Source of the DNA: Escherichia coli
GTDB taxonomy: Bacteria; Pseudomonadota; Gammaproteobacteria; Enterobacterales; Enterobacteriaceae
NCBI RefSeq assembly: GCF_003334815.1
Contig: NZ_QOWO01000004.1
Length of the DNA: 64,000 nucleotides
Strand: one strand, 5' to 3'
The translations under genes and the position numbers were made by a program. Positions 652-34,109 of this stretch are shown piece after piece; the stretch's first letter is position 1; every line of letters starts with the position of its first letter. Under the pieces are notes generated by a model. That model saw only the letters and a list, made by a program, of their open reading frames with translations, did no database searches and was not told where the DNA came from.

Positions 652-1762
652 ACCTCAGGGCAAGGTTACTAAAGCCCGCGCCCCGCAAGGACTGACGCGA
701 GCTAGTCTCTGCCATAGATGTTCTTCTCATCTTACGTGTAAACTCTGTCTTAGATACTTTATGCTTCTTCAAAATATTAAGGCGATATGTCTTATGAATT
801 ATGCCTGGATATAATTCTTATGCATTTCCTCTTCTTATTTTGCTGTCATCTTCATTCATTGCCACATCCAGACACCAGTGCAACTTACTCTCTTGGTGCC
901 AGTGGTTTCGAATCGCTGATATAATATCTGACCGTCATTTCTGGCTCCTTCTTTTGTTCTGCTATTTTTTACCGAAAGTAGTCTGCCACGCAAAATTTTT
1001 TCAGTCCTTTTCATTCAAATGTGAAATCAATAATTTCATTAGGAATATCTAAACAATATGAAGACGGATTTTTTCTCTGTCGCGACTCTTTCAGTAATTA
1101 CGTAACTGTCATGCTTTGGATTACTTAATTCTTTCAGAAGAAAATTTACTCAAAGGCTTTATTAATCCGCCCCTGATTTCCTTTTACTGCGAATAAATAA
1201 TCGACTCCCTGTTTTTGTATCTTTTCTGCAAAATCATTCTGGCACCCCAGCGCATCAGTTGTAATAATTTTTTTTAATATCTAAATGTTAATTAGTTGAG
1301 GGATAGCTGTAATCTCAGTGGATTTCTCATCTGTCTTGATCTGTCAGAGAACAAGACTGAGCATTGTTGAGAACGCTCTAATGACATGAATCGCTTCTTT
1401 GCGGCGAGTTTTTTCATAAGAGTACCGGAGCGTTTTTCGAACTATAGCAATGACGTCTTTTTCATTTGACGAATGGAAATCCCTCATCCAGTTAATAATG
1501 CACTCGTGAAATTTTGCAGGAGTGATACATGATACAATTCTGGCAATGGTAACGAGAACAGGAATACCATTTTCTAAATCACTATATTACTTAAAAAAAC
1601 AAAATATGTCTCACCAAATCCTCTATATCTTCCGAACCTTCTGTACCAAAAATGACGACACAAATAGTCAACAGTAGTATATATGACAATTTATGTTTCC
1701 CTTTTCAGGCTTGTCTGTAATCGGGGATAATAGAAATATATTCCATCAATTTTTAGTACCAT
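652..1762 (-). mobile_element. ISAs1-family (H-repeat-associated) transposase pseudogene, about full length but with multiple stops and frameshifts
   Basis: Reverse-strand translation gives [61 protein letters not shown] and [29 protein letters not shown], matching remembered E. coli H-repeat proteins (YhhI/YdcC type: DTIARVVSCISPAKFHEC...DVIAIDGKTLR...). Reading frame is broken repeatedly; no minus-strand ORF of 60 aa or more in the track here. Confidence 0.7.
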
Positions 1763-7030: not shown

Positions 7031-7930
7031 TTAAATTGCTGTAGTCGTAAATAATTCGTTGAGCATGCGTTTCACACCAACCTGCCAGTCAGGCAAAACA
7101 AGCGCAAAGTTCTGCTGAAATTTTTCTGTATTAAGGCGAGAGTTATGCGGACGACGAGCTGGTGTAGGATAGGCTGTTGTTGATACTGCGTTGAGCTTGT
7201 TGAGTGCAAGGGGAATGCCTGCTTTGCGCGCCTCTTCAAAAACCAGCGCAGCATAATCGTGCCAGGTTGTGGTACCACTGGCTACCAGATGGTACAAGCC
7301 TGCGACTTCTGGTTTATTCAGTGCCACACGAATTGCATGTGCCGTACAATCAGCCAGCAGTTCAGCACCTGTTGGCGCACCAAACTGATCATTAATAACG
7401 GCTAATTCTTCACGCTCTTTTGCCAGACGCAACATCGTTTTGGCGAAGTTATTTCCTTTACCTGCATAGACCCAGCTGGTACGGAAAATTAGGTGCTTCG
7501 CACAATGCTCTTGTAATGCTTTTTCTCCAGCTAACTTGGTTTCACCGTAAACATTTAGCGGTGCGGTTGCATCCGCCTCCTGCCATGGTATTTCACCGGT
7601 CCCCGGAAATACGTAGTCAGTTGAGTAATGAATTACCCAGGCCCCAACTTCATTAGCCGCTTTTGCAATTGATTCAACGCTGGTCGCATTGAGTAATTGT
7701 GCAAATTCGGGTTCTGACTCAGCCTTATCTACTGCGGTATGAGCCGCAGCATTAACAATAACATCAGGGCGAATTTTTTTGACGGTTTCAGCTACACCTT
7801 CAGGATTACTAAAATCACCACAATAATCAGTGGAGTGAACATCAAGAGCAATCAAATTACCCAAAGGTGCCAGAGCACGCTGTAGTTCCCAACCGACCTG
7901 CCCTGTTTTGCCGAAAAGGAGAATATTCAT
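7031..7930 (-). CDS. rfbD: dTDP-4-dehydrorhamnose reductase
   Basis: 299 aa; [21 protein letters not shown]-terminus typical of RmlD. Confidence 0.95.
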   Translation of the reverse strand: MNILLFGKTGQVGWELQRALAPLGNLIALDVHSTDYCGDFSNPEGVAETVKKIRPDVIVNAAAHTAVDKAESEPEFAQLLNATSVESIAKAANEVGAWVIHYSTDYVFPGTGEIPWQEADATAPLNVYGETKLAGEKALQEHCAKHLIFRTSWVYAGKGNNFAKTMLRLAKEREELAVINDQFGAPTGAELLADCTAHAIRVALNKPEVAGLYHLVASGTTTWHDYAALVFEEARKAGIPLALNKLNAVSTTAYPTPARRPHNSRLNTEKFQQNFALVLPDWQVGVKRMLNELFTTTAI

Positions 7931-9015
7931 TACTGGCGGCCCTCATAGTTCTGTTCAATCCACGATTGATAAGCACCACTTTTCACATTATCAACCCATT
8001 TTGTATTGGACAGGTACCATTCCACCGTTTTACGAATCCCGCTCTCAAACGTTTCCTGCGGTTTCCAGCCCAATTCGCGGCTAATCTTCTCTGCATCAAT
8101 CGCATAACGGCGATCGTGTCCCGGGCGATCGGCAACATAAGTAATTTGCTCACGGTAAGATTTCTCTTTCGGTACAATCTCATCCAACAAATCACAAATA
8201 GTGAGCACTACATCGATGTTTTTCTTTTCGTTGTGTCCACCAATGTTATAAGTTTCACCCGCTTTACCTTCGGTTACGACGATATATAACGCACGCGCAT
8301 GATCTTCAACATACAGCCAGTCACGAATTTGATCCCCTTTGCCATAAATAGGTAATGCCTTACCTTCCAGAGCATTAAGAATTACTAGTGGAATCAATTT
8401 TTCCGGAAAGTGATAAGGACCGTAGTTATTCGAACAGTTAGTCACAATGGTCGGTAAACCATAGGTACGTTTCCACGCACGGACTAAATGATCGCTGGAT
8501 GCTTTTGATGCGGAATAAGGACTACTAGGCGCGTAAGCTGTCGTCTCAGTAAAGAGGGGTAATTGTTCTTTATTATTTACTTCGTCAGGATGAGGCAGAT
8601 CGCCATAGACTTCGTCAGTAGAAATATGATGAAAACGGAAGCTATTTTTCTTGTCGCCATCAAGAGCAGACCAGTAATTGCGAGCCGCTTCCAAAAGGAC
8701 ATAAGTACCAACAATATTGGTTTCAATAAATGCCGCAGGGCCTGTAATTGAACGATCCACATGGCTTTCAGCAGCCAGGTGCATCACTGCATCCGGCTGA
8801 TGCTGAGCAAAAATCCGCGCCATTGCAGCAGCATCGCAAATATCCGCATGTTCAAAAACATAGCGTTCAGAATCAGAAACATCAGCAAGTGATTCCAGGT
8901 TTCCGGCGTACGTTAATTTATCGACATTAACAACACTATCCTGCGTATTATTTATAATGTGACGAACTACTGCAGAACCAATAAATCCTGCGCCACCAGT
9001 AACAAGTATCTTCAC
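7930..9015 (-). CDS. rfbB: dTDP-glucose 4,6-dehydratase
   Basis: 361 aa; [20 protein letters not shown]ossmann N-terminus; first gene of the rfb operon. Confidence 0.95.
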
Positions 9016-9083
9016 TTTTTTATTCCATATTACTTCAGAGCATGCTGTGAAATTAGCGGCTCTTAGTTTGATTAATAGAGGTA

Positions 9084-9125
9084 TTAATGCACGCTACCGC
9101 CCCTGGCTTTACAGCTACCAGAGCA
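9084..9125 (-). promoter_or_regulatory. JUMPstart element with ops (RfaH antitermination site) upstream of rfbB
   Basis: Forward cacgctaccgcc at 9090..9101 is the reverse complement of ops GGCGGTAGCGTG; the same 30-nt motif recurs upstream of wza at 33630. Confidence 0.8.
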
Positions 9126-9386
9126 CTGCATGCATGCCTACGATGTAGCGAGCGTTACCCACTCGCGCTTAACCCGAAAAATTCAAACGCTAATTGTCTT
9201 ACCAATTCGCCCTGGAAACAAGGAAAATCCTGGAAAACTTTGACTAAAATCCTATTGCTAACTCGTTGTTATTCTGATTGTTTATATAAAACAACGGCAG
9301 GAATATTCGCAACAAATTACTTTCGCCACGAATCTTCACTGCCGTTATAATTTTCTTATCAACCGTTACATCCGGTCAGATTTTCA

Positions 9387-10280
9387 TTATTCGCTTAACA
9401 GTTTCTCAATACCTTTACGGAACTTCGCCCCTTCTTTCAGGTTGCGTAGTCCATACTTCACAAATGCCTGCATATAGCCCATTTTTTTACCGCAGTCGTA
9501 GCTGTCACCAGTCATCAGCATTGCATCAACAGACTGTTTTTTCGCCAGTTCGGCAATGGCATCTGTCAGTTGGATACGTCCCCATGCACCTGGCTGAGTG
9601 CGTTCAAGTTCCGGCCAAATATCTGCAGAAAGCACATAGCGACCAACGGCCATGATGTCTGAGTCCAGCGTCTGCGGCTGATCCGGTTTTTCGATAAATT
9701 CAACAATGCGGCTGACTTTACCTTCACGATCCAGTGGTTCTTTGGTCTGAATAACGGAGTATTCAGAGAGGTCACCCGGCATACGTTTTGCCAGCACCTG
9801 GCTACGGCCCGTTTCATTGAAACGCGCAATCATGGCAGCAAGGTTGTAACGCAGCGGATCGGCACTGGCGTCGTCGATCACAACGTCTGGCAGCACCACG
9901 ACAAATGGGTTGTCACCAATGGCGGGTCGTGCACACAAAATGGAGTGACCTAAACCTAAAGGTTCGCCCTGACGTACGTTCATAATGGTCACGCCCGGCG
10001 GGCAGATGGACTGAACTTCCGCCAGTAGTTGACGCTTCACGCGCAGTTCAAGAAGAGATTCTAATTCATAAGAGGTGTCGAAGTGGTTTTCGACCGCGTT
10101 CTTGGACGCGTGAGTTACCAGGAGGATTTCTTTGATACCTGCAGCCACAATCTCGTCAACAATGTACTGAATCATTGGCTTGTCGACGATCGGTAGCATC
10201 TCTTTGGGAATCGCCTTAGTGGCAGGCAACATATGCATCCCAAGACCCGCTACAGGAATAACTGCTTTTAAATTCGTCAT
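9387..10280 (-). CDS. galF: UTP-glucose-1-phosphate uridylyltransferase subunit GalF
   Basis: ORF track gives 301 aa from 10292; conserved start [22 protein letters not shown] at 10280 gives 297 aa; GalU/GalF family. Confidence 0.95.
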
Positions 10281-10454
10281 TATTTCATCCACCTGTAAAA
10301 TGGTTGCTGAATTATAGCTTGTTCGATTTTTTTCGCCAGCATCAATTACCCTGAATTGATTACTGAATTACTTGTGATGTTACGCCGCTTCGTTGTGGAT
10401 TGCAGTAGCATTGTTCCTAAGTATGGCTCCATTTTTCCAGGAATGGTCGCAAAT

Positions 10455-11849
10455 CTACTCCCTCCGTTCCGGCAATCTAAAGTTAATCTTTTCCACATTA
10501 ACAATATGGTGATTAATCCTGTCGATATCGACGGAGCTTTGCCCTCTTTCATTCACCGCATGAACATTTGCAAGAGACAGCAGTGTTTCTTTTTTCGCCA
10601 TAAAGACGCCGCGAACGTCTTTGCGCATGTCGAAGTTCATGCTCAATGCGGGACCAACTGAGGATTCCTGCATCACTTTGATATTACGCATAAAAAGATG
10701 TTGCGGTTTATTGTGAAGCTCCAGCGAGGCACGCTTCATCTCAATGTTAGTCAGTGCCACAAAGGAGGCAGCATTCCCGGCGGAGATTTGGATGCCGCGC
10801 AATTTATAAGCAAGATGGGTGTTATCCAGTTGAATATTATTCACTCGGAAATTTTGCGGTATCGAGAGATATTTGCCTTTAATTACCCCATAGCCGATTA
10901 ACATCCCGGCGCTATTAATCATTTCAATATTATCAATCACGAAATTGTCACAACCATAAATAGCGACTGTGGCGTTATCTATGCCTGCTTTCTTACTGAA
11001 ATCCGGCGTGATATTGCGGGCTTTGATATTACGGATAACAAAATGTTTGCCATTTTCAACATGGATCAACTGCCGACAATCCGATCCCGTGATATTTGCC
11101 ACGACAAAGTTTTTCACTGCCTGGTCTTCCGGGTAGTTATTATCATAAGTACTCCCCGCAAGGCCTATGCCAATGCCCCAGTTGATTTTGCCATTAGTAC
11201 AGTTGATGCGCTCGATGACATGGTCGGAGATCAAAATATCACGGTCGTTAATCGCCACGTTCCATTCAATGGCGTCGCCCTGTAAATCACTAAATTTACA
11301 GTTGGTGATGTTGGCACCGATAATCTGGTTATGAAATCCCTGGCGTAAGATGGCGTAATTAGCGTGGCTGACAGTGAGGTTATCGATGGTCAGGTTGCGC
11401 ATGACCCGTTTGTTTTTGCCGCCGATATAAATCTGCGTTACCGGACCAAAGCCGCTCATCGCCAGCCCTTTGATGGTGCAGTCAGAACCACGCACATCCA
11501 GGGTGATGTTATGCATACTGCCGCCCTCCTCCCCTGTCACCTGGCTGCCGTCCTGTAAGACAAATCGCCCTCTGCCGTTGCCGCGCAGGCTTCCAAGGAT
11601 GTGTAACGTTTTACCTGCAGGAATGAAGATGCCGGTGTTGATATTGTCACAAACGAATCCGGCAGGCACGACGACCGTATGCCCTTCGCTGAAGGCTTGT
11701 TTAAATGAGGCGATCCAGTCGTGTGGGTTGTAGTCGTTAATGTTAACGCTTTGTCTGGCGCGAAGTGCGCGAGCGAAAGGGGTATGGAGGAAGGCAAGCG
11801 CGGAGCTTGCCGTCAGGAAGGTGCGTCGGGAGAGTTTTTTAAATGGCAT
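10455..11849 (-). CDS. wcaM: Colanic acid biosynthesis protein WcaM
   Basis: 464 aa with twin-arginine-like signal ([15 protein letters not shown]); last gene of the colanic-acid cluster by synteny. Confidence 0.85.
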
Positions 11850-14417: not shown

Positions 14418-14612
14418 TGCCTGATGCGACGCTGGCGCGTCTTATCAGGCCTACAAGACCCGAGCACAGAACCGTAGACCGGATAAGGCGTTCACGCCGC
14501 ATCCGGCATTCAGTGCCTGATGCGACGCTGACGCGTCTTATCAGGCCTACAGGTCCCGAGCACAGAACCGTAGGATGGATAAGGCGTTTTACGCCGCATC
14601 CGGCAACCGTTG
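14418..14612. repeat. REP/BIME cluster (tandem palindromic units) between wcaK and wzxC
   Basis: Two copies of an approx 100-bp unit each containing gcctgatgcgacgctg(g/a)cgcgtcttatcaggcctac and ccggataaggcgtt(c/t)acgccgcatccgg. Confidence 0.85.
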
Positions 14613-17642: not shown

Positions 17643-19013
17643 TTACTCGTTCAGCAACGTCAGCAGAGTTCGCGTTCGCGCTTCCATCAGCGGTACATCA
17701 CCGCGCGATTCCACATTCAACCGCACCACCGGTTCGGTGTTGGAGGAGCGCAGGTTAAAGCGCCAGTCGGCAAAGGTCATGCTGATACCATCGGTGCGAT
17801 CCACCGCCAGCGCCTCACGGCTAAAGTGCTGTTCCACGCGGTTAATCGCCTCAACGGGTTGCGCCAGTTTGCTGTTGATCTCACCGCTTGCCGGAAACGC
17901 CGCCATCCGGTCGCGCACCAGTTCGCCCAGCGTTTTTCCTTTCAGGCACACCAGTTCGGCGACCAGCAGCCATGGGATCATGCCGCTGTCGCAGTAAGCG
18001 AAATCACGGAAGTAATGGTGGGCGCTCATTTCGCCACCGTAGATGGCGTCTTCCTTGCGCATACGTTCTTTAATAAAGGCGTGTCCGGTTTTCGACATTA
18101 CCGGGGTGCCGCCTGCGGCAGTCACCACATCAACGGTATTCCAGGAGAGACGAGGATCGTGGATGATCTTCGCGCCGGGATTTTTTTCGAGGAACGCTTC
18201 TGCCAGCAGGCCGACAATGTAGTAGCCCTCAATAAACTGCCCTTTTTCGTCAAACAGGAAGCAGCGGTCAAAATCGCCATCAAAGGCAATGCCCATATCC
18301 GCGCCGTGTTTGATGACCGCATTGCGGGTGTCGTCGCGGCATTCCGGCAGTAGTGGGTTAGGAATACCGTTGGGGAAATTGCCGTCCGGCGTGTTGTGCA
18401 CTTTGATTAATTCCACGGGTGCGCCGAGGGCTTTAAAGCGGGCTTCAATGGCGTCCACCACCGGACCCGCTGCGCCGTTCCCGGAGTTGATCACCAGCTT
18501 GAGCGGCGTGAGGTTTTTGACGTTGATATAACCGAACAGGTGATCAACGTAAGCGTCACGCAGGTTGATTTGCTGATAGCGACCGCGTTTGGTTTCATCG
18601 ACGGGAGGAAAGTCGTTGGCTTCAGCCAGACGCTGGACGTCGCGCAGTCCGGTATCTCCGCTGATCGGGCGAGCCCCCTCGCGAACCAGCTTCATGCCGT
18701 TATAATCCATCGGATTATGGCTGGCGGTAACTTCAATGCCGCCATCCACGCCGAGATGGAACGTGGCGAAATAGATCTCTTCGGTGCCGGACATACCAAT
18801 ATCCAGCACGTCAACGCCCGCATCCTGTAAACCTTTTGCCAGCGCCAGTTTTAAGGTTTCGCTGGTGAGACGGACATCACCGCCTAACACAATGGTTTTC
18901 GGTTTGAGAAATTCGCCATAAGCGCGACCAATGCGCCAGGCAATATCTTCATTCAATTCTTCGCCTAATTTCCCGCGAATATCATAGGCTTTAAAGCAGG
19001 TTAATTTTTTCAT
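17643..19013 (-). CDS. cpsG: Phosphomannomutase
   Basis: ORF track 472 aa; conserved start [15 protein letters not shown] at 19013 gives 456 aa; TASHNP active-site motif present. Confidence 0.95.
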
Positions 19014-19102
19014 ATCGTTACCCTTTTTCAGGCAATAGTTGGCCCTGACCGAAGCGGCCAATTTTATTTTTGTCGTTATTTACACCGCGGTTTCGCATTC
19101 AT

Positions 19103-31862: not shown

Positions 31863-32306
31863 TTATACCTGCTCTGCGTTCAATGCCTGCGCCCACTGGC
31901 GGGCAGACCGTTCAAGTAATGTGTACACCGCTGCAAACGTTTCCCGGCTTTTGCGATACGGATCGGGGATTTCACATTCGTTATCCCAGTGACCAAACAG
32001 CATCACTTTGCCGCGCATCTCAGGTGCCATCTCGCATAAGCGTTCGATATGGCGCTTTTCCATGGTCAAAATCAGGTCGTAGTTGCGACACAGACGGCGG
32101 CTGATTTGACGGGCACAGTGACCTTCCAGAGACAGTTGATGTTCTGCGGCGACGCTGATAGCGGTAGGATCAGCGCCCTTACCGACCAGCGCGCCGAGTC
32201 CAGCGGACTCCACTTTCAGCTCCGGGTGATAACGTTGCAGTAAGCGTTCCGCCGTCGGGGAACGGCAAATATTGCCGACACAGACAACTAAGATGTTGTT
32301 AAACAT
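31863..32306 (-). CDS. wzb: Low-molecular-weight protein-tyrosine phosphatase Wzb
   Basis: 147 aa; CVGNICRSP P-loop motif. Confidence 0.95.
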   Translation of the reverse strand: MFNNILVVCVGNICRSPTAERLLQRYHPELKVESAGLGALVGKGADPTAISVAAEHQLSLEGHCARQISRRLCRNYDLILTMEKRHIERLCEMAPEMRGKVMLFGHWDNECEIPDPYRKSRETFAAVYTLLERSARQWAQALNAEQV

Positions 32307-32311
32307 GACGA

Positions 32312-33451
32312 TTACCAGTTATGAATGTCGCTGGCTGTATCCGTCATGTAACGGACACCGCTAATAGTTGGCAGCAACTGATTGATCAGACGGTTCCAGC
32401 GGGAAACCGGGGCGGTGGTGACATACACCACGTCATAAGGTTGCAGGCGGAATTCTGTCGCCATCACCAGCGACGTGGCATCGGACATATCCAGCTGGTA
32501 GATATTGGCAATCTTGCCGTTACGCCCGCCCTCGCCTTTCAGCGGACGAATGACAAAGATGCCGCTGGCGTTGGAGGTGGTCATGTCGATGCCTTCAGCA
32601 TTGCCCAGGGCTTCGGTCAGGGTCATGCCGCTAAAGTCCATTTTCAGGGTGCTCTGTTTCTTCACTTCACCCATCACAAATACTTTCAGATCATCATTAC
32701 GTGGCACGTAGAGAATATCGCCGGGGTAAAGCAGGCGATTCTGGTTGAGGTCGCCGTTTTGCATCAGCGCCTGCAAAGAAATGCGTTCTTCACGACCATT
32801 GTGTGTTAACACCACGTTGCGCCAGTCAGCGGTGTCGGTCAGGCCACCTGCGGCGTTGATGGCGTCGAGAATAGTCAGTGGCACGTTGGTGATCGCCTGT
32901 TGACCGGATTTATTCACCTGACCGGAGATATAGGCCTTTTGTGAGCGGAAGGCGGCGATATTAACGTCCACCTGCGGGTCAGCGATGTACGTCGCTAAGC
33001 GCCCGGTAATATCACTGCGGATTTCAGCGAGCGTTTTCCCGACTACGTGAACCTTGCCGATATACGGGTAGAACATAGTGCCGTCAGGCTGTACCCAGTT
33101 GCCGGTGTCGCTGGAGCTGCGGTACTGACCAGCTGGCGTGGTGAGTTCCGGGTGATCCCAGACGGTGACATTAAGAACGTCGCCCGGCCCGACGCGATAC
33201 TGGTAATTCGCGATCTCACTTTCCAGCGTCATATTGGGGCGCGCTACATTCGGGCGTGGGCGTAATTGGTCAATCAGGCGCGGGGTCAACGGATAAACAT
33301 TCACCATTTTGTCGAGATCGAAATCAGCGTCCTGCTGTTTGATGACGTCTTTGCCCATCGTCGACATATTGCTGCCCGGAAGTACTGTGCAACCGCTTAT
33401 CAAGGTTACTGACACCAATAATGGCATCAATTTCATTTTGGATTTCATCAT
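32312..33451 (-). CDS. wza: Outer-membrane polysaccharide export lipoprotein Wza
   Basis: 379 aa; lipoprotein signal ending LISGC. Confidence 0.95.
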
Positions 33452-33626
33452 TGTTTATTTATCACTTTGGCAGAGTAATTATCCTGTGCACTATTAATAG
33501 CAATGTCGCCATGCACATTTACCTTGCAGTTAATTGAATAAAAATTTAACTGGCATCAGTCCTAAAAAAATTGATTTCATCCGCAGGCTATTGACAGAAT
33601 AATTCAGACTGGTCTTTCAGGCATCC

Positions 33627-33662
33627 AGACACGCTACCGCCCCTGGCTTTTTAGCTACCAAT
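33627..33662 (-). promoter_or_regulatory. JUMPstart/ops element in the wza leader
   Basis: cacgctaccgcccctggcttt..agctacca, near-identical to the element at 9090; ops = reverse complement of 33630..33641. Confidence 0.8.
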
Positions 33663-33934
33663 ACACTGATTTAGCTTAATTTTTCAAACCCTCTCTGCAT
33701 ACAATCGTTGATGAGAAAGGGTTATTGCGGAAATTAACTTCCGAATATAAGGTGACATTATGGTAATTGAATATTGGCTCTCCAATAATGCAGGAGGAAG
33801 TGTTACAGCTAACGGAATAGCAGGCAAGGTAACAATTCGGCAATTGGCTATTTTTAAGAATTATATTAAGTGTCATTCAATATGGTTTTTAGGAGTTTCT
33901 TTAGGTTGACAATATTTAATATTGCGTCTCCACA

Positions 33935-33948
33935 TGCGATATTTCTTA
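33935..33948 (-). promoter_or_regulatory. Putative RcsAB box upstream of the colanic-acid operon
   Basis: Reverse complement is TAAGAAATATCGCA, close to the remembered consensus TaAGaatatTCctA; placement upstream of wza is plausible. Consensus match by eye only. Confidence 0.4.
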
Positions 33949-34109
33949 AATAATGTTTTATTATTACCACTTTTAATTCAGGGATAATGTGAGGTTATTA
34001 CCCTCAAATAATATGAGATAAATAGTGCTGCAACATTGCATTTTTGCCCCGATTTATCCATGATCGAATTGTGACATTTGTCATACAACGAATAGGTTTT
34101 GTACTTACT

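Follow-up and report, generated by a model that had tools for sequence, protein, structure and literature searches.

In a 64,000-nucleotide stretch of Escherichia coli DNA (the window), two long surface-polysaccharide operons, those for O-antigen (rfb) and colanic acid (wza to wcaM), are preceded by the same short motif. The questions raised by this arrangement are what the motif is, how it would act on operons of this kind, and what is contributed by the part of it that lies outside the RfaH recognition sequence. A preliminary description had taken the plus-strand motif for the reverse complement of ops, the site used by RfaH for antitermination of long polysaccharide operons, and had regarded it as expected biology. 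This was the right assessment, since JUMPstart, the ops/RfaH system and ChIP at both loci have already been published, and the two sites are known features of E. coli. With a probability of roughly 0.93, both are JUMPstart/ops sites, one of the O-antigen (rfb) and one of the colanic-acid (wza-wcaM) operon, lying in what would be transcribed, untranslated leaders on the non-template strand, where they would load RfaH. The sole point that could reach beyond annotation concerns the non-ops half of the element, whose structure keeps a constant spacing to the ops pause site in many Gammaproteobacteria.

A Block of 39 bp Shared by Two Leaders

On the plus strand the 21-mer CACGCTACCGCCCCTGGCTTT occupies positions 9090-9110 and 33630-33650, beginning at the two places where the motif had first been noticed. 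These are the only exact copies in the 64-kb window, in which none would be expected by chance; allowing up to three mismatches revealed no further copy in the window, and none was found in 100 dinucleotide-preserving shuffles. At both sites the 21-mer is followed by two variable bases and then by AGCTACCA. Local alignment of the two complete intergenic regions, from the galF stop to the rfbB start and from the yegH start to the wza start (both read on the minus strand), returned one ungapped block of 39 bp running from 9128 to 9090 and from 33668 to 33630. This block holds 34 identities in 39 positions and scores 53, compared with 20.6 ± 2.3 in shuffles. Similarity between the two leaders is confined to it, and its edges are sharp.

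Read on the minus strand, the block ends 3' in a perfect ops 12-mer, GGCGGTAGCGTG, in both copies, so the original reading of the plus-strand motif as the reverse complement of ops is upheld. When up to one mismatch is allowed, the 12-mer still occurs at these two sites only, both on the minus strand (0.26 sites expected in the window). The only correction to the original observation is that its coordinates were a few bases off: the interval 9084-9125 contains most of the element, but 9084-9089 lie outside it and 9126-9128 belong to it, the true block being 9090-9128 (Table 1).

Table 1. Features of the two leaders and their flanking genes, in window coordinates.
Feature	Position	Strand	Basis or remark
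JUMPstart, rfb leader: CAGTGCTCTGGTAGCTGTAAAGCCAGGGGCGGTAGCGTG	9090..9128	-	Rfam RF01707; block common with wza leader
ops 12-mer GGCGGTAGCGTG, rfb copy; predicted pause U11 = 9091	9090..9101	-	exact match
5-bp stem-loop, rfb copy: CTGGT 9121-9117 / GCCAG 9107-9103, 9-nt loop	9103..9121	-	Rfam consensus structure; covariation
Candidate second helix S1 (hypothetical): CAGT 9128-9125 / GCTG 9115-9112	9112..9128	-	moderate covariation; outside Rfam model
Probable rfb promoter: TTGTTT (9221-9216), 17 nt, GACAAT (9198-9193)	9193..9221	-	phylogenetic footprint
rfbB, dTDP-glucose 4,6-dehydratase, first O-antigen operon gene	7930..9015	-	GTG start at 9015
galF, upstream neighbour of rfb leader	9387..10280	-	stop codon 258 nt before JUMPstart
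JUMPstart, wza (colanic-acid) leader: CAGTGTATTGGTAGCTAAAAAGCCAGGGGCGGTAGCGTG	33630..33668	-	Rfam RF01707; shared block
ops 12-mer GGCGGTAGCGTG, wza copy; predicted pause U11 = 33631	33630..33641	-	exact match
5-bp stem-loop, wza copy: TTGGT 33661-33657 / GCCAG 33647-33643	33643..33661	-	Rfam alignment
Weak promoter-like site (tentative) upstream of wza JUMPstart: TGGAGA-16-CATAAT	33757..33784	-	9/12 match; chance-level for region
wza, first colanic-acid operon gene	32312..33451	-	ATG at 33451
yegH, divergent neighbour bounding wza leader/promoter region	34110..35693	+	RefSeq annotation transfer

Identity of the Element

Both copies match the JUMPstart family of Rfam (RF01707) over the full length of its model (positions 1-38 of 38), with 60.0 bits for the rfb copy and 57.3 bits for the wza copy. 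The gathering threshold is 35, so the alignment to the JUMPstart consensus that the preliminary description had proposed gave full-length matches at nearly twice the gathering score. The JUMPstart element is reportedly due to Hobbs and Reeves in 1994, and the Rfam family is said to go back to Weinberg and colleagues in 2010. The two copies share with it the 5-bp stem-loop immediately 5' of ops, the ops sequence at the 3' end and the place before polysaccharide clusters, here those for O-antigen and colanic acid, a context that is repeated in other genera. They depart from it in that 5 of 39 positions are not the same in the two copies, in that the wza stem is weaker, owing to two G-U pairs, and in that the candidate second helix (S1) seen here is absent from the Rfam model.

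The 12-nt ops consensus GGCGGTAGnnTG is matched by both copies, and C3, G4, G5, T6, A7 and G8, which are needed for RfaH contact, and the T11-G12 pause dinucleotide are all in place in each. Since rfbB and wza are minus-strand genes, both ops copies are carried on the non-template (coding) strand. Compared with the ops/RfaH system of E. coli as known from the rfb, waaQ, hly, kps, tra and wza leaders, the window has the identical 12-mer on the same strand ahead of long surface-structure operons, with rfaH present, and there is no difference of substance; the strain is another one, with another O-antigen gene set. Gene coordinates were transferred from the RefSeq annotation of E. coli 52F4 (NZ_CM147848.1), whose chromosome and the window are 100% identical in the two segments of 2.6-2.7 kb that were compared (8000-10600 and 32300-35000). 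In 52F4 an intact rfaH (WP_001192396.1; 489 bp, 162 codons) lies between ubiD and tatD at 3366198-3366686 of NZ_CM147848.1.

Operon Context and Promoters

The rfb copy is situated between galF and rfbB, with 74 nt from the last ops base to the rfbB GTG. The wza copy is situated between the divergent genes yegH and wza, its ops ending 178 nt upstream of the wza ATG, and the colanic-acid genes from wcaM to wza are on the minus strand. Both elements are intergenic and on the sense strand of minus-strand operons (galF/JUMPstart/rfbB and yegH/JUMPstart/wza), and thus mark the 5' leader and the direction of transcription of each cluster, as the preliminary description had proposed.

Approximately 58 nt upstream of the rfb JUMPstart there is a conserved -35/-10 pair, TTGTTT-N17-GACAAT, in which the hexamers and the 17-nt spacing are kept and the spacer sequence varies among E. 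coli, E. albertii, E. cloacae, Enterobacter sp. Bisph1 and Superficieibacter. This pair is probably the rfb promoter. The transcript would then be predicted to begin near 9186 and to have a leader of about 171 nt, in which JUMPstart would start some 58 nt from the 5' end. A mapping of the O7 rfb promoter and leader by Marolda and Valvano in 1998 reportedly arrived at a leader of 173 nt, which agrees with this prediction. A scan of the rfb leader with consensus promoters returned no sense-strand site, the TTGTTT-N17-GACAAT pair falling below the scan threshold; for the wza leader the scan gave a single weak site, at chance level (Table 1). A terminator scan of both leaders likewise found no terminator-like site on the sense strand.

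Conservation Across Genomes

Matches to the 39-mer (blastn, at least 80% coverage) are present in 5,426 of 5,426 complete E. coli genomes, at 17,858 places with a median of three per genome and up to six; the third copy is presumably that of the waaQ leader. A scan with GGGGCGGTAGCGTG of one genome per GTDB species gave at least 120 loci, a small sample in which about half are chance matches in high-GC genomes. Orthologous leaders were located by tblastn with the Wza, RfbB, GalF, YegH and WcaM proteins of the window. The order yegH/element/wza is found in at least five other taxa (Citrobacter werkmanii, three Enterobacter species and Superficieibacter), and the order galF/element/O-antigen in at least seven (E. 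albertii, E. cloacae, two other Enterobacter species, an Enterobacter MAG, Superficieibacter and Rahnella). The window's distance of 74 nt between ops and rfbB recurs in Enterobacter sp. Bisph1, as judged from the start of the rfbB match, and in aligned orthologous leaders JUMPstart forms the main island of invariant columns. The preliminary description was to be given up if the motif failed to match ops on alignment or was absent from orthologous leaders; the motif fits the consensus, and the element is present throughout the complete E. coli genomes and in the leaders of Citrobacter, Enterobacter, Superficieibacter, Rahnella and E. albertii, so that neither ground for doubting it was found.

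Several variants were noted in these comparisons. A perfect ops without the canonical 5' half of JUMPstart occurs at five loci from E. albertii, Enterobacter, Acerihabitans and Pantoea. In a locus from a Lachnospiraceae MAG (L113, approximately 480-540), an ops-like 14-mer lies within a short tandem repeat, AGGGCGGTAGCGTGAATTGTAATTGCGAGGGGGCGGTAGCGTGAATTGTAATTGC, and is probably unrelated to RfaH. Among the matches listed, the five nucleotides that follow ops in gammaproteobacterial sites are biased to YCTG(A), with C at position 13 in 32/61, C at position 14 in 37/61, T at position 15 in 43/61 and G at position 16 in 33/61, and this bias is missing in the listed chance matches from other phyla. 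It allows a possible hairpin, GGGCG[GUAGCG]YGYCU, which among the same matches corresponds to a second hairpin peak at offset +16; the wza copy fits this hairpin (TCTGG at 33625-33629) and the rfb copy does not (CATTA at 9085-9089). The bias could instead be part of a pause or escape signal.

Predicted Recruitment of RfaH

The action of ops on transcription has been described in detail. It is a consensus pause signal with pauses at C9 and U11, in which bases 3-8 are needed for RfaH recruitment (G4, G5, A7 and G8 being essential, and C3 and T6 partly so) and T11-G12 for the pause; in reporters the 12-mer is active by itself (PMC5995543). T6 flips into a pocket of the RfaH N-terminal domain, relieving autoinhibition, and the bound protein suppresses backtracked and hairpin-stabilised pauses as well as Rho-dependent termination; the C-terminal domain binds ribosomal protein S10, and recruitment of the 30S subunit has been proposed (PMC6391919; bioRxiv 324400). 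In E. coli CFT073, ChIP gave an RfaH signal at eight leader ops sites, including those of wzx (rfb) and wza, which was lost in an rfaH deletion strain (PMC9765446).

For the two sites in the window, binding, pausing and antitermination are taken from this literature, and the sequences, their strand, position and conservation and the presence of rfaH come from the present analysis. RNA polymerase would pause at ops (C9, U11), and the exposed non-template strand would adopt a very small hairpin (C3:G8, G4:A7) from which T6 is flipped out. Recognition of this hairpin by autoinhibited RfaH would be followed by separation of the RfaH domains. The N-terminal domain would lock onto the polymerase, excluding NusG and suppressing pausing and Rho-dependent termination, and the refolded C-terminal domain would recruit the ribosome to genes with poor Shine-Dalgarno sites, allowing the RfaH-modified polymerase to read through the long operons. 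The translation starts seen here appear to fit the last of these functions, as wza has no recognisable Shine-Dalgarno sequence and the rfbB GTG has at best a weak GGA upstream.

No finding of the analysis speaks against the JUMPstart/ops explanation. The wza operon of CFT073 is silenced by H-NS in rich medium, where RfaH was found at it only in an hns stpA double mutant (PMC9765446), so the wza copy may rarely be used in the laboratory. As annotation, the two elements fix the start and direction of two large surface-polysaccharide operons and predict RfaH dependence of both, which is useful for serotype or virulence work and is not new.

A Hairpin in the Non-ops Half

The Rfam stem pairs C8-U12 of the 39-mer with G22-G26, placing its 3' base, G26, 1 nt before ops G1 and 12 nt behind U38 (ops U11). 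Among the matches listed together with the window, 55 of 123 have a hairpin of 5 bp or more that ends 3' precisely on the G 1 nt ahead of ops G1, compared with 13% in shuffles. The position is sharply defined: for gammaproteobacterial ops sites among the matches listed, a hairpin is present in 72% at the 1-nt offset, and no other offset between -25 and +6 exceeds 18%. The frequency at the 1-nt offset is 16% for the listed non-gammaproteobacterial matches, which are mostly due to chance. In a hold-out sample of metagenomes (pattern GGGGCGGTAGCGTGCCTG, 94 unique sites), 68% of sites carry a hairpin at the same offset. Different lineages place different stems there, including CTGGT/GCCAG, TTGGT/GCCAG, CAGGT/GCCTG, TTGGA/TCCAG, CAGGA/TCCTG, CAAGA/TCTTG, CACTGG/TCGGTG, CGGGG/CCTCG and others.

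Covariation was assessed in an alignment of 28 taxonomy-selected enterobacterial, Aeromonas and Idiomarina sites, five of them without JUMPstart. In the stem, 89.3% of cells are paired and two-sided changes occur at four of the five pairs, giving a covariation score of 0.376; shuffles gave 0.167, with none of 500 reaching the observed value, and partners slid along the sequence gave at most 0.121. One stem position is mostly U-G, indicating that the structure belongs to the sense strand. Folding energies of the isolated 39-mers, computed for RNA and for DNA, do not differ from those of shuffles (z about 0), and for the wza 39-mer alone the fold of lowest energy is one other than the Rfam stem. 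Evidence for the hairpin is therefore comparative and not energetic. In both samples, the gammaproteobacterial matches listed and the metagenomes, about 30% of ops sites are without the hairpin and, together with the activity of the bare 12-mer in reporters, this suggests that the structure is at most accessory.

A Possible Pseudoknot

RNAalifold applied to wza leaders paired CAGU (positions 1-4) with the loop sequence (G/A)CUG (positions 14-17). Combined with the Rfam stem, this candidate helix S1 would make a possible H-type pseudoknot, with 4 bp in S1, 3 nt in L1, 5 bp in S2, 1 nt in L2 and about 4 nt in L3. Across the 28 aligned sites S1 is 80% paired, with two-sided changes at three of its four pairs and a covariation score of 0.245 (0.152 in shuffles, reached by 0 of 500; at most 0.134 for slid partners). 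Examples of such changes are A1-U17 in Rahnella, G2-C16 in Superficieibacter and the wholly different CGCA/UGCG in Pantoea. Elements of a Pseudomonas-like class show this topology too, formed by different sequences (CGUU/AACG, AGUC/GACU, GCGUC/GACGC) with linkers of constant length; the core pairs of S1 rarely vary within this class, which is therefore uninformative on the point.

An algorithmic test for S1 was only moderately significant, with 29 of 54 positive among the matches listed and 19.1 ± 3.4 in shuffles. The hold-out sample gave 25 of 64, with 18.5 ± 3.2 or 15.7 ± 3.0 in shuffles, and in both tests the sequences are related to one another. No S1 helix was found in the abundant Marinobacter-type elements. 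In the window, four to six S1 pairs are possible in the rfb copy and three in the wza copy.

Structured RNA, Operator or Repeat

Given these structures, the element could work mainly as a structured leader RNA, in which a protein or ligand would bind the hairpin or pseudoknot and contact with ops DNA would be of secondary importance. Such a reading would account for the compensatory changes in the non-ops hairpin (89% paired over the 28 sites, four of five pairs changed on both sides), for the quite different stems in the same place in other Gammaproteobacteria, for a position dominated by G-U pairs, which is specific to the sense strand, and for a possible second helix. It sits poorly with the observation that the invariant part of the element is ops, which is recognised in the form of non-template DNA and is enough for RfaH to act in reporters (PMC6391919; PMC5995543), and with the ops sites, about 30%, that dispense with the hairpin and the isolated 39-mers that fold at z about 0. 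Considered as a rival it is unlikely, though it deserves to be kept in mind; the structured-RNA reading adds to the JUMPstart/ops explanation and does not replace it.

A duplex-DNA operator for a regulator of initiation such as RcsAB, or an intrinsic terminator or attenuator, is very improbable. The regulatory intergenic location and the inverted repeat within the element would suit either of these, but no T-run follows the stem and the sense strand has no terminator-like site, the stem accepts G-U pairs, which in a duplex palindrome would be mispaired, and the sequence is unlike the published RcsAB box TAAGATTATTCTCA; titles of papers cited in the literature also put JUMPstart action after initiation. 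That the shared 39 bp are a generic dispersed repeat (REP/BIME-like or the remnant of a mobile element) with no operon-specific role can be dismissed almost outright, for although the element is short and present in several copies per genome (median three, up to six), its orientation to the operon that follows and its intergenic location do not change from genus to genus, it is better conserved than any other part of these otherwise diverged leaders, and it matches a curated cis-regulatory family and not a repeat family, the true REP-type element of the window (14477-14547) being recognised separately. The dispersed repeat, operator and terminator readings were accordingly rejected on conserved position and orientation, G-U tolerance and the lack of a T-run.

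A Composite Pause Signal?

Within the JUMPstart/ops explanation, the base of the stem lies 12 nt behind U11, which is the distance of pause hairpins and pseudoknots and suggests, as a hypothesis, a role in the ops pause. The distance between a pause hairpin and the RNA 3' end is 11-12 nt (PMC4227799), and it is the same for the preQ1 pseudoknot in the 'class III' pause of que (bioRxiv 350447). The 26-27 nt before ops may thus fold in the nascent RNA as a hairpin, or possibly as an H-type pseudoknot in the enterobacterial and Pseudomonas-like elements, which 12 nt behind U11 would hold the polymerase or limit its backtracking for RfaH loading; judged from sequence comparison, this proposal is tentative and has appreciably less than an even chance of being correct. 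JUMPstart would then act as a composite pause signal, the RNA structure keeping polymerase at ops, or preventing it from backtracking, for long enough that scarce RfaH can load. As a suppressor of hairpin-stabilised pausing, RfaH would subsequently release the polymerase held by the structure.

The element shares with class I (his) and class III (que) pauses a pause sequence that follows a nascent-RNA structure with its base 11-12 nt from the 3' end. The ops pause, in contrast, has been described as class II (backtracked and hairpin-independent), so that a resemblance is noted here and membership of either class is not claimed. A literature search found no paper testing a role of the JUMPstart stem in ops pausing. 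A further parallel is offered by the EAR/epsC RNA of Bacillus eps operons, which is likewise a leader element of a long exopolysaccharide operon that acts in processive antitermination (PMC2864571). EAR differs in that its sequence and structure are unrelated and in that it reportedly acts on the elongation complex in the form of RNA, without ops or RfaH. If the proposal is true, a stem that tunes the ops pause would account for the conservation of 39 bp and not just of 12, and it would link the 'class II' ops pause to structure-stabilised pausing.

Other Features of the Window

Apart from JUMPstart, the wza leader (33449-33620, minus strand) contains three blocks that are nearly invariant across six genera: CCTGAATTATTCTGTCAATAGCCTGCGGATGAA, TTTTTTAGGACTGATGCCAGTT and GCACAGGATAATTACTCTGCCAAAGTGATAAATAAnCAATG. 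The last of these covers about 50 nt directly before the wza ATG and lacks a Shine-Dalgarno sequence. When the whole wza leader from the six genera, including the three invariant blocks, was folded with RNAalifold, no covariation support was obtained (covariation term +2.09), and no leader-wide structure is therefore claimed for wza. The same leader includes a candidate upstream ORF of 16 codons, MKSIFLGLMPVKFLFN (33530-33580, minus strand), which is without RefSeq annotation. An inner ATG of this ORF at 33556 would give MPVKFLFN and lies 73 nt after ops, compared with 74 nt for the rfbB GTG. Its frame is kept in five of the six genera, and the difference between E. coli and Citrobacter is synonymous (TTT TTA to TTC CTT); conservation at the nucleotide level is also high here, so the coding status is that of a candidate only.

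According to the 52F4 annotation, the O-antigen operon contains a frameshifted ISAs1-family transposase pseudogene (669-1746, minus strand) between two glycosyltransferase genes. It lies downstream of the rfb ops, so that an RfaH-modified polymerase would have to read through it. Within the colanic-acid operon, Rfam recognises an algC RNA motif (76.6 bits; 19018-19067, minus strand) immediately upstream of the phosphomannomutase gene cpsG, and a naRNA4 (REP/BIME-type) element (14477-14547, plus strand) in the wcaK-wzxC intergenic region. Two further Rfam matches, a Sib antitoxin RNA (142 bits; 49600-49748, plus strand) and the CyaR sRNA (101 bits; 63867-63952, plus strand), are unrelated to JUMPstart.

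On the opposite strand of the wza promoter region, RefSeq annotates a hypothetical protein of 49 aa (33760-33909, plus strand). Inside this ORF, TAAGAATTATATTA (33857-33870, plus strand) resembles an RcsAB box, with 9 of 14 matches to the Klebsiella box TAAGATTATTCTCA, and lies about 110 nt upstream of the weak wza promoter-like site.
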